From: a virus
DNA: 9,584 bases
Direction: 5' to 3' (one strand)
Virus genome (UHGV): UHGV-0197445
Translations under genes and position numbers: made by a program
The notes under the pieces: generated by a model
Database searches by the model: none
Told to the model about the DNA's origin: nothing
Seen by the model: only the letters and a program-made list of their open reading frames with translations
Part shown: positions 2,420-2,677 of the stretch, piece after piece
How the letters are laid out: each line of letters opens with the position of its first letter
Position numbering within the stretch: the first letter of the stretch is position 1

Positions 2420-2442
2420 GGCCTGACCTCACCAATCAGGCC
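2420..2442. other. Hairpin overlapping the end of the small ORF (possible terminator)
   Basis: 7-bp stem GGCCTGA (2420-2426) / TCAGGCC (2436-2442) with a 9-nt loop. No clean U-tract on either strand. Confidence 0.25.
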
Positions 2443-2677
2443 TGTTCATCCAGTTAGTTGGTAAATCTGTACCTGATACACGAGAATCAAACACCACTTC
2501 TTCAGTGCCATCACCATGATGCCGGATAATCTGGTAACCGGATTGCGGGTTCTGGCTCTCAGCTTCATAAGCAGCCCGGAATGCTGGATCTTTGAGAAGC
2601 ATCACTTTCAGCTCCTGATGTGTCATGAATTTTTCCATGATAAGCCCCGATGAATGCTGCCGCGCCGAATCAGCCAT
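2429..2677 (-). CDS. Small hypothetical protein (start uncertain; alternative ATG at 2638)
   Basis: 82-aa ORF between the secretin gene and attP. There is no convincing SD before the ATG at 2677. The internal ATG at 2638 (MEKFMTHQELKVMLLKDPAFRAAYEAE...) has a weak G-rich SD. The sequence is hydrophilic and I do not recognise a family. Confidence 0.35.
   Translation of the reverse strand: MADSARQHSSGLIMEKFMTHQELKVMLLKDPAFRAAYEAESQNPQSGYQIIRHHGDGTEEVVFDSRVSGTDLPTNWMNRPDW

Follow-up and report, generated by a model that had tools for sequence, protein, structure and literature searches.

In the filamentous phage YpfPhi of Yersinia pestis, two open reading frames (ORFs) adjoining attR, YPO2280a and YPO2281, have no predictable function and are common to CUS-1 of Escherichia coli O18:K1:H7; a review of YpfPhi names these terminal ORFs of unassigned function as an open question (PMC4266046). 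YpfPhi and CUS-1 have been associated with the within-host fitness of Y. pestis and extra-intestinal E. coli. Here we analyze a gene of this kind in UHGV virus genome UHGV-0197445, a stretch of 9,584 nucleotides (nt) that is called the window below. The window is one complete CUS-1/YpfPhi-type filamentous phage genome (family Inoviridae), and the gene lies on its minus strand at positions 2429-2638, near the phage attachment site attP. It is the dif-proximal member of the above pair and, by gene order only, would be YPO2281 rather than YPO2280a. The gene is already known: in CUS-1 and YpfPhi it is an annotated phage ORFan of no assigned function.

Variable genes at this end of a prophage have been described in other dif-integrating inoviruses. 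UPPhi phages and their accessory ORFs were reported by Shapiro and Putonti in 2020 (PMC7307601). Inoviruses of Vibrio carry hypervariable accessory regions (pHVRs) beside attP, which survive in degraded relics (PMC12715192), and in CTXPhi the ctxAB genes sit at the corresponding position (PMC4266046). XafT of TLCPhi and XafV (orf136) of VGJPhi are encoded immediately alongside attP as well; XafV raises CTX-type attP integration 10-fold, XafT has a helix-turn-helix (HTH) domain, and XafV is structurally similar (bioRxiv 10.64898/2026.06.12.731946).

The window carries the same gene as YpfPhi and CUS-1, with DNA 97-100% identical, and in those phages it is also the final ORF at the dif-proximal prophage end and is also said to have "no predictable function". 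With the Vibrio pHVRs and morons, including ctxAB, it shares the character of variable cargo that lies at the prophage end near attP and lasts in relics. It is, however, a single gene for 69 amino acids (aa) with no similarity to toxins or known defence genes; the defence protein models of PADLOC gave no hit at E <= 0.1. The accessory ORF of a UPPhi prophage (WP_001159442.1, E. coli BH100) is likewise small and of unassigned function, and it occupies the same slot between the same borders in a dif-integrating inovirus, but it encodes an unrelated 77-aa protein that contains CxxC...CxxC motifs and weakly matches a zinc finger. The practical results of the analysis are a corrected start codon, the recognition of the ORF as a selected protein rather than debris, and the context of the slot.

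Coding status, start codon and protein family

The ORF at 2429-2677 on the minus strand encodes 82 aa from its first ATG (2677), and further ATG codons lie at 2638 and 2626. The original prediction, which was made from the letters of the window, had described a hydrophilic ORF of 65-82 aa with these three starts, ending at a hairpin (2420-2442) and more GC-rich than the cargo gene 1121-2197. This description holds. All three ATG codons are present, the 69-aa form is hydrophilic and acidic with an isoelectric point (pI) of 5.15 and a net charge of about -4, the stop codon lies in the loop of a perfect 7-bp stem, and the GC content is 0.47-0.48 across the ORF vs 0.27-0.35 in the cargo gene. The ORF had also been placed directly beside the attP hairpin. 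This is true insofar as a CTX-type attP is adjacent and no other credible gene stands between the stop codon and the attP hairpin, but the two are 137 nt apart.

The coding tests drew on the DNA of 22 loci, taken from genomes as well as viral contigs, with 52 core codons aligned. The ratio of nonsynonymous to synonymous substitution rates (dN/dS) is 0.08-0.26 among the copies from E. coli, Brenneria, Pantoea and Erwinia. The changes fall mostly on third positions: there are 10, 7 and 22 changes at the three codon positions between the window and a Candidatus Pantoea copy (L007), and 9, 5 and 28 between the Brenneria rubrifaciens copy (L006) and the latter. Between two Candidatus Pantoea species the ORF is 83% identical with dN/dS of 0.25, and the flanks (100 nt upstream and the spacer from the stop codon to dif) are about 52% identical. 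Identity in this pair collapses exactly at the start and stop codons, and the sole indel within the ORF is 9 nt long and in frame. From these substitution patterns it is near certain that 2429-2638 is a genuine gene under purifying selection.

The same evidence bears on the alternative that the frame is a non-coding remnant, i.e., a chance frame over DNA kept for a role in cis, for instance as origin, packaging signal or part of attP. The region does match the position of the Ff intergenic region after gene IV and has hairpins, and its eight C-terminal codons overlap a hairpin and vary by frameshift. Yet the third-position bias, the low dN/dS and the in-frame Pantoea indel exclude the non-coding reading, the start codon and the Shine-Dalgarno sequence are conserved, and the amino-acid family is still recognisable at about 32-45% identity. 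On these comparisons a remnant, which the original prediction had admitted, is hardly credible and can be regarded as effectively refuted.

The start codon can be placed by the same comparison. Methionine at 2638 is kept in every homologue with the sole exception of a GTG in L011. It is preceded by a Shine-Dalgarno-like motif, for which relatives have GAGG, GGAG or AGGGAG 6-9 nt upstream of the start. ATG 2677 is excluded as the start because the relatives L009, L011 and L012 have in-frame stops within the 13 upstream codons. The profile of PHROG 6642, a family of unassigned function with 69 positions, begins at MEKF, and Met 2626 is Thr or Ile in most of the distant relatives. Thus ATG 2638 and a length of 69 aa are near certain as judged from the homologues. 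The start in the RefSeq counterpart, WP_001298440.1 (65 aa, PGAP start at Met 2626), is very probably wrong: the protein would have neither 65 nor 82 aa. Comparative genomics looking at coding-style substitutions, which had been proposed as a check, has settled both the coding status and the start at 2638. A stem of 2688-2694 with 2632-2638 that would sequester the start codon was considered and rejected, since L023 has one compensatory and one disruptive change, and in L022 and L024 the pairing is broken.

Among 5.8 billion proteins searched, about 30 clusters of the family were found, all from Enterobacterales, and an exhaustive hidden Markov model (HMM) profile search of 1.84 billion representatives gave only 35 hits. 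The protein belongs to a tiny family restricted to Enterobacterales. Large multi-stretch hits of the profile search were discarded as DUF5122 beta-propeller repeats, i.e., generic hairpin noise. The core of the homologues reads M-[KE]-K-F-x-T-H-x-E-L-K-x-x-L-L-K-D-P-A-F-R-A-A-Y-E-A-E-S-Q-N-P-x-x-x-Y-Q-I-I-R-H-H-x-D-G-T-E-E-V-V-F-D-S and is followed by a variable tail. Residues 1-52 are the conserved core, the tail 53-61 (RVSGTDLPT) is kept in one subfamily only, and residues 62-69 are variable. The last eight residues are unconstrained, since in close relatives a 2-nt indel replaces them, giving ...PTATG*.

Two AlphaFold2 runs, with alignments of 9 and 19 sequences, agree on a topology of two helices (residues 7-15 and 18-28) and a beta-hairpin (strands 36-40 and 46-51). 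The mean predicted local distance difference test (pLDDT) score is 72-76, and the tail from about residue 57-64 onward is below 50. A Foldseek comparison of the two models with PDB and BFVD gave no match at E <= 0.001, all TM-scores being below 0.32. Sequence-profile searches of PDB returned chance hits only, at E > 1 (beta-hairpin matches to RNA polymerase beta', E of about 2).

The sole family match of the protein is a full-length one to PHROG 6642, in which residues 14-82 of the 82-aa ORF cover profile positions 1-69 of 69 (E = 1.1e-53). Despite this existing family, INPHARED phage records contain no DNA or tblastn match to the gene. Pfam gave no hit at E <= 1 for the protein and none that was consistent at E <= 5 among 21 family members, one of which matched HTH_19 at E = 0.038. 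NCBIfam and PADLOC gave nothing consistent for the protein and these 21 members. Two specific relationships were tried and rejected. One is an origin of the N-terminal helices from XRE-antitoxin N-termini (the LLKDPEFRAEYE motif): profile and PDB profile searches were unsupportive, and the profile search of 1.84 billion representatives revealed no HTH_XRE similarity, only family members and repeat-protein noise. The other is a packaging-signal binding protein of the PSB15 type. PSB15, of 15 kDa, has a WAGFXF motif (bioRxiv 10.1101/2024.03.19.585677), which the window protein lacks.

An exchangeable slot next to dif

Many E. coli genomes have tandem prophages at dif beside hipA, to which the region of the gene is about 99% identical; to UTI89 it is 100% identical. 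The protein is 100% identical to E. coli copies. In every CUS-1/YpfPhi-type copy examined, no other gene stands between this gene and the XerC arm of a dif that is perfect or nearly so. The dif site is 39-150 nt downstream in the CUS-1/YpfPhi-type chromosomal loci and farther away in the loci of an Erwinia metagenome-assembled genome (L009) and Xenorhabdus mauleonii (L012). The attP of the window is of the CTX type, with inverted dif-like sites, a forked hairpin in the packaged strand and a crossover on the XerC side. The packaged strand at 2185-2300 folds into this forked hairpin with -33.8 kcal/mol and a z-score of -8.85, and none of 200 shuffled sequences folds as well. At the prophage junctions of L001, L004 and L005 the crossover lies right after the XerC arm, and a perfect dif adjoins the ORF; the crossover point, right after GGTGCGCATAATGTA, is as expected for XerC-mediated CTX-type integration. 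After such integration the gene is the final prophage gene before the reconstituted chromosomal dif.

The slot has two borders. The upstream one is a non-coding element (2652-2756), common to YpfPhi/CUS-1-type and UPPhi-type phages. L023, L024 and the UPPhi-type L027 keep it at about 85-90% identity, including cases with another ORF downstream. It is better conserved than the genes on either side, it is the only matching stretch in 49 E. coli records, and its fold has a z-score of -3.4. This element, which past its hairpin is also written TTGGCCAAGCCG...GATTCGGCGCGGCAGCATTC, could serve as an origin of the (-) strand, as a packaging signal or as a promoter or leader. The other border is a conserved motif (2289-2314) directly upstream of the XerC arm, present in the UPPhi-type prophage as well as in the copies from E. 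coli, Brenneria and Pantoea.

An inovirus from IMG/VR (L023) and the UPPhi-type prophage of E. coli BH100 (L027) are 82% identical in nucleotides over 4.6 kb of morphogenesis genes and 85% identical over the upstream element. The slot of the former holds the gene studied here, that of the latter the unrelated Cys-rich 77-aa ORF, after which come the same CGCCAG...CCATCCTTACCATT motif and dif. The Cys-rich ORF is a replacement of the gene, not a homologue. The gene also stands in two divergent backbones, CUS-1/YpfPhi and UPPhi-like, whose secretins are only 26% identical, and in a distant inovirus (L026) the order is secretin, a homologue of the basic neighbour (2823-3071), a 70-aa ORF and a homologue of the gene. 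Judging from these alignments, it is near certain that the gene occupies an exchangeable cargo slot between the two borders.

Intact copies of the gene persist in prophage relics of B. rubrifaciens (L006), two Candidatus Pantoea species (L007 and L011), X. mauleonii (L012) and the Erwinia metagenome-assembled genome (L009). In these five relics rep, the repressor, the membrane protein, Zot and the secretin were not detectable. The gene is close to dif in the first three and about 0.5-0.85 kb away from it in the last two. Other relics retain more (L010 and L005) or cut into the ORF (L008 and L013). The relics fit a progressive deletion that is unable to cross dif and are suggestive of a benefit at the level of the host or the prophage that is independent of virion production.

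Variant alleles are also found. Some E. coli prophages (L028, E. coli JA0072, at about 1500-1730; also H49 and H50) have an allele with an in-frame deletion of 93 nt, which removes residues 10-40 and is unannotated in RefSeq. Frameshifted and truncated variants are present among the cluster representatives.

In the Erwinia locus (L009, 6208-7075) a duplicated 45-nt fragment of the 3' end of the gene and ORFs of 155 and 98 aa lie between the gene and dif. These extra pieces could stem from a later integration event at this dif.

Possible roles of the product

The reading that we favor, and hold as a whole with about even confidence, is that of an exchangeable accessory gene of the moron or hypervariable-region type with a protein-binding role. 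The phage itself would replicate, assemble and integrate without it. The product would most likely act by binding another protein, and it would probably benefit the lysogen or the prophage independently of virion output, for example, in competition with other dif-integrating elements or phages. The gene seems to be dispensable for the core life cycle, including integration, because sister phages do not have it and the 93-nt deletion allele is carried by prophages. Protein binding is the most likely mode of action because the small core of two helices and a beta-hairpin has a disordered tail, is acidic and bears no DNA-binding signature. The cassette-like slot and the dispensability in sister phages suggest a function that is accessory or directed at the host; a role related to Xer is the clear second hypothesis.

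Several observations weigh against this reading. Homology to any particular biochemical activity was not found in the searches above. A promoter scan found no convincing sigma-70 promoter upstream of the gene, so its expression is inferred only. That the gene is linked with the attP module in two phage lineages would fit a function related to attP just as well. The relic pattern may be neutral, because dif is not deletable and the dif-proximal gene therefore lasts longest; two relics (L008 and L013) truncate the gene, and the purifying selection may have acted in still-active phages rather than in relics. Finally, the left borders of the relics are scattered, at the equivalents of window positions 3144, 2976, 2685, 2667, 2638, 2589 and 2535, for which reason a defined mini-element with a common left border was rejected.

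The main rival of the accessory reading is a factor that modulates Xer recombination: it would bind XerC, XerD or the attP/dif synapse and stimulate or inhibit integration or control the later integration of integrative mobile elements exploiting Xer (IMEX). The gene adjoins attP as xafT and xafV do, it travels with attP-proximal DNA into a different backbone (L023), and it is both constantly the last gene before the XerC arm in CUS-1/YpfPhi-type copies and kept beside dif in relics. The likeness to XafT and XafV is in position only: by their description they are set apart from our protein, which has 69 aa and is acidic, unlike the HTH protein XafV, and shows no HTH or DUF3653 signature, no Pfam hit and no structural relative. 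Moreover, the UPPhi-type sister has the same attP-proximal sequences and an unrelated ORF in place of the gene, the deletion alleles sit in integrated prophages, and the published CTX-type models have integration driven by host Xer recombinases without a phage protein. We regard such a factor as unlikely. The original prediction had suggested a recombination-directionality or integration accessory factor; the points just listed leave it unsupported and of low probability, though not absurd given that XafT and XafV are encoded beside attP. Recombination directionality factors are basic DNA-binding proteins, and CTX-type integration is not known to have an Xis-dependent excision pathway. Lambda Xis has two helices, a beta-hairpin and a disordered tail, and the AlphaFold2 models superficially repeat this order of elements. 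However, Pfam and Foldseek revealed no excisionase or winged-helix domain (Xis, AlpA, HTH_17), neither Pfam nor the 50 best Foldseek matches listed including an Xis or excisionase, and the pI of about 5 is unlike that of a basic DNA-binding protein (4.8-5.3 in eight family members, with net charges of -3 to -7). The acidity and the lack of a nucleic-acid-binding signature argue against a classical directionality factor.

A related possibility is a guard or modulator linked to dif and unrelated to XafT and XafV, which would bind XerC, XerD or the synapse and control the entry of further dif-integrating elements, either by excluding competitors or by facilitating array formation. If true, it would explain why several Enterobacterales genera keep just this gene beside dif after prophage loss and why the gene moves with the attP module between backbones; we nevertheless consider it quite unlikely. 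Instead, the product could regulate the lysogeny switch by counteracting the HTH repressor (1-447) as an antirepressor, in the manner of RstC from the RS1 satellite. RstC is a small protein encoded by the last gene before the att end of RS1, which makes a positional parallel, and a small acidic protein suits protein-protein binding. But the locus L005 pairs a 98%-identical copy of our protein with a repressor that is only 40% identical, and relics keep the gene without any repressor gene; these two facts disfavor the antirepressor. UPPhi-type and Salmonella enterica relatives share regulation and replication genes with YpfPhi but differ in their other genes (PMC10354491; PMC7307601), and the UPPhi-type prophage L027 does not have the gene. 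We think this role very unlikely. The accessory reading with a protein-binding role is thus the one we retain.

Genome context and other features of the locus

The features of the window that were used above, together with its other genes, are listed in Table 1. The window can be seen as a circular genome opened at the repressor start, because the 171 nt after rep at the window end are the rep-repressor spacer of E. coli tandem prophages.

Table 1. Positions of genes and sequence elements in the window
Feature	Position	Strand	Remarks
HTH repressor	1-447	+	
Membrane protein		+	
AT-rich cargo gene	1121-2197	+	358-aa ORF; phrog_17621
CTX-type attP	2193-2291	.	two inverted dif-like sites flanking a GC hairpin
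dif-like site 1	2196-2222	+	
dif-like site 2	2261-2288	-	XerC arm GGTGCGCATAA at 2288-2278
Motif at the right border of the slot	2289-2314	-	CGCCAGATTCTGCCATCCTTACCATT; directly upstream of the XerC arm
Spacer between ORF and attP	2292-2428	.	137 nt, from stop codon to hairpin foot
ORF-end hairpin	2420-2442	.	stop codon in loop; perfect 7-bp core, as RNA up to about 14 bp
Small acidic protein (near-certain coding sequence)	2429-2638	-	69 aa and TGA stop (2431-2429); MEKFMTHQELKVMLLKDPAFRAAYEAESQNPQSGYQIIRHHGDGTEEVVFDSRVSGTDLPTNWMNRPDW; one of two small ORFs after the secretin gene
In-frame 13-codon extension, 5' leader outside the protein	2639-2677	-	MADSARQHSSGLI; placed by stops in relatives and the PHROG profile start
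Shine-Dalgarno-like GGGG	2645-2648	-	6 nt upstream of ATG 2638
Non-coding element, left border of the slot	2652-2756	-	about 105 nt; imperfect hairpin 2710-2753, then TTGGCCAAGCCG...GCGTTATGGCTGATTCGGCGCGGCAGCATTC
Basic neighbour	2823-3071	-	82 aa, pI 11.5, WP_001536105.1; the other CUS-1/YpfPhi ORF of unassigned function and the other small ORF after the secretin gene
pIV secretin	3160-4404	-	Secretin, E = 1e-24
ssDNA-binding protein, coat and adsorption proteins, Zot/pI		-	
Replication protein G2P	8361-9413	-	Phage_CRI, E = 1e-73

In the hairpin at the end of the ORF, GGCCTGA (2420-2426) pairs with TCAGGCC (2436-2442) around a 9-nt loop. As RNA it has a folding free energy of -21.2 kcal/mol and a z-score of -2.6. 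It has no T/U-run, with GTTCACTTACTG in this place, and the terminator scan gave no call; it is not a canonical intrinsic terminator. The hairpin is weakened in L023 and absent from the Brenneria and Pantoea copies. In the alignment, the part of the spacer at 2330-2428 is an insert limited to E. coli and UPPhi-type phages. An ORF on the plus strand (2214-2417) was rejected as a gene: its conservation merely follows that of the DNA, it spans attP, and it is replaced at prophage junctions.

The basic neighbour has the motif KSPSWYRN-L/M-MM-x-RPERREVK and matches no family. It is 74-78% conserved in the Brenneria-type copies L010 and L024, and L026 has a clear homologue. L023 and the relics lack it, so the small acidic protein is not always accompanied by it. 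A near-perfect palindrome lies at about 2800-2826, after the stop codon of the basic neighbour.

Two divergent loci, L026 (6230-6400) and L025 (480-640), have in common a GC-rich stretch of about 170 nt, GGGCAT.GAAGGCGG...CCGCC...GGGGGATTT.ATCAGGGAGCGCGA.CCCCC, which lies near a homologue of the small gene or a dif-like site. A search of Rfam with the window, L025 and L026 gave nothing relevant and no match for this stretch.

In E. coli MS20658 (L001, 1-2750) the first copy of the tandem array at dif/hipA has a deletion that fuses Zot to the 3' end of the secretin. This array has a perfect dif at the end of the small gene and a hybrid site at the hipA end.

The cargo side of attP is also a variable slot. 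The window has the ORF 1121-2197 there, and other strains carry other genes: in a comparison of L001 (7931-9002) and L002 (8117-9001), one E. coli strain has a protein with a DpnII/MboI-like restriction endonuclease domain together with DUF6953, and another has two different hypothetical genes.

A stretch of 66-73 nt with about 94% identity to dif-like site 1 and the GC hairpin of attP (window 2200-2265) occurs in about 400 plasmids, most of them conjugative. In the plasmid that was inspected, pMS7163A (IncFIB; L029, 2497-2560), the attP-like stretch directly follows a gene of the STM4504/CBY_0614 family, and TTTT comes after it. The stretch could be a scar left by the cargo-side end of a related element, or else a terminator or Xer site that is shared.

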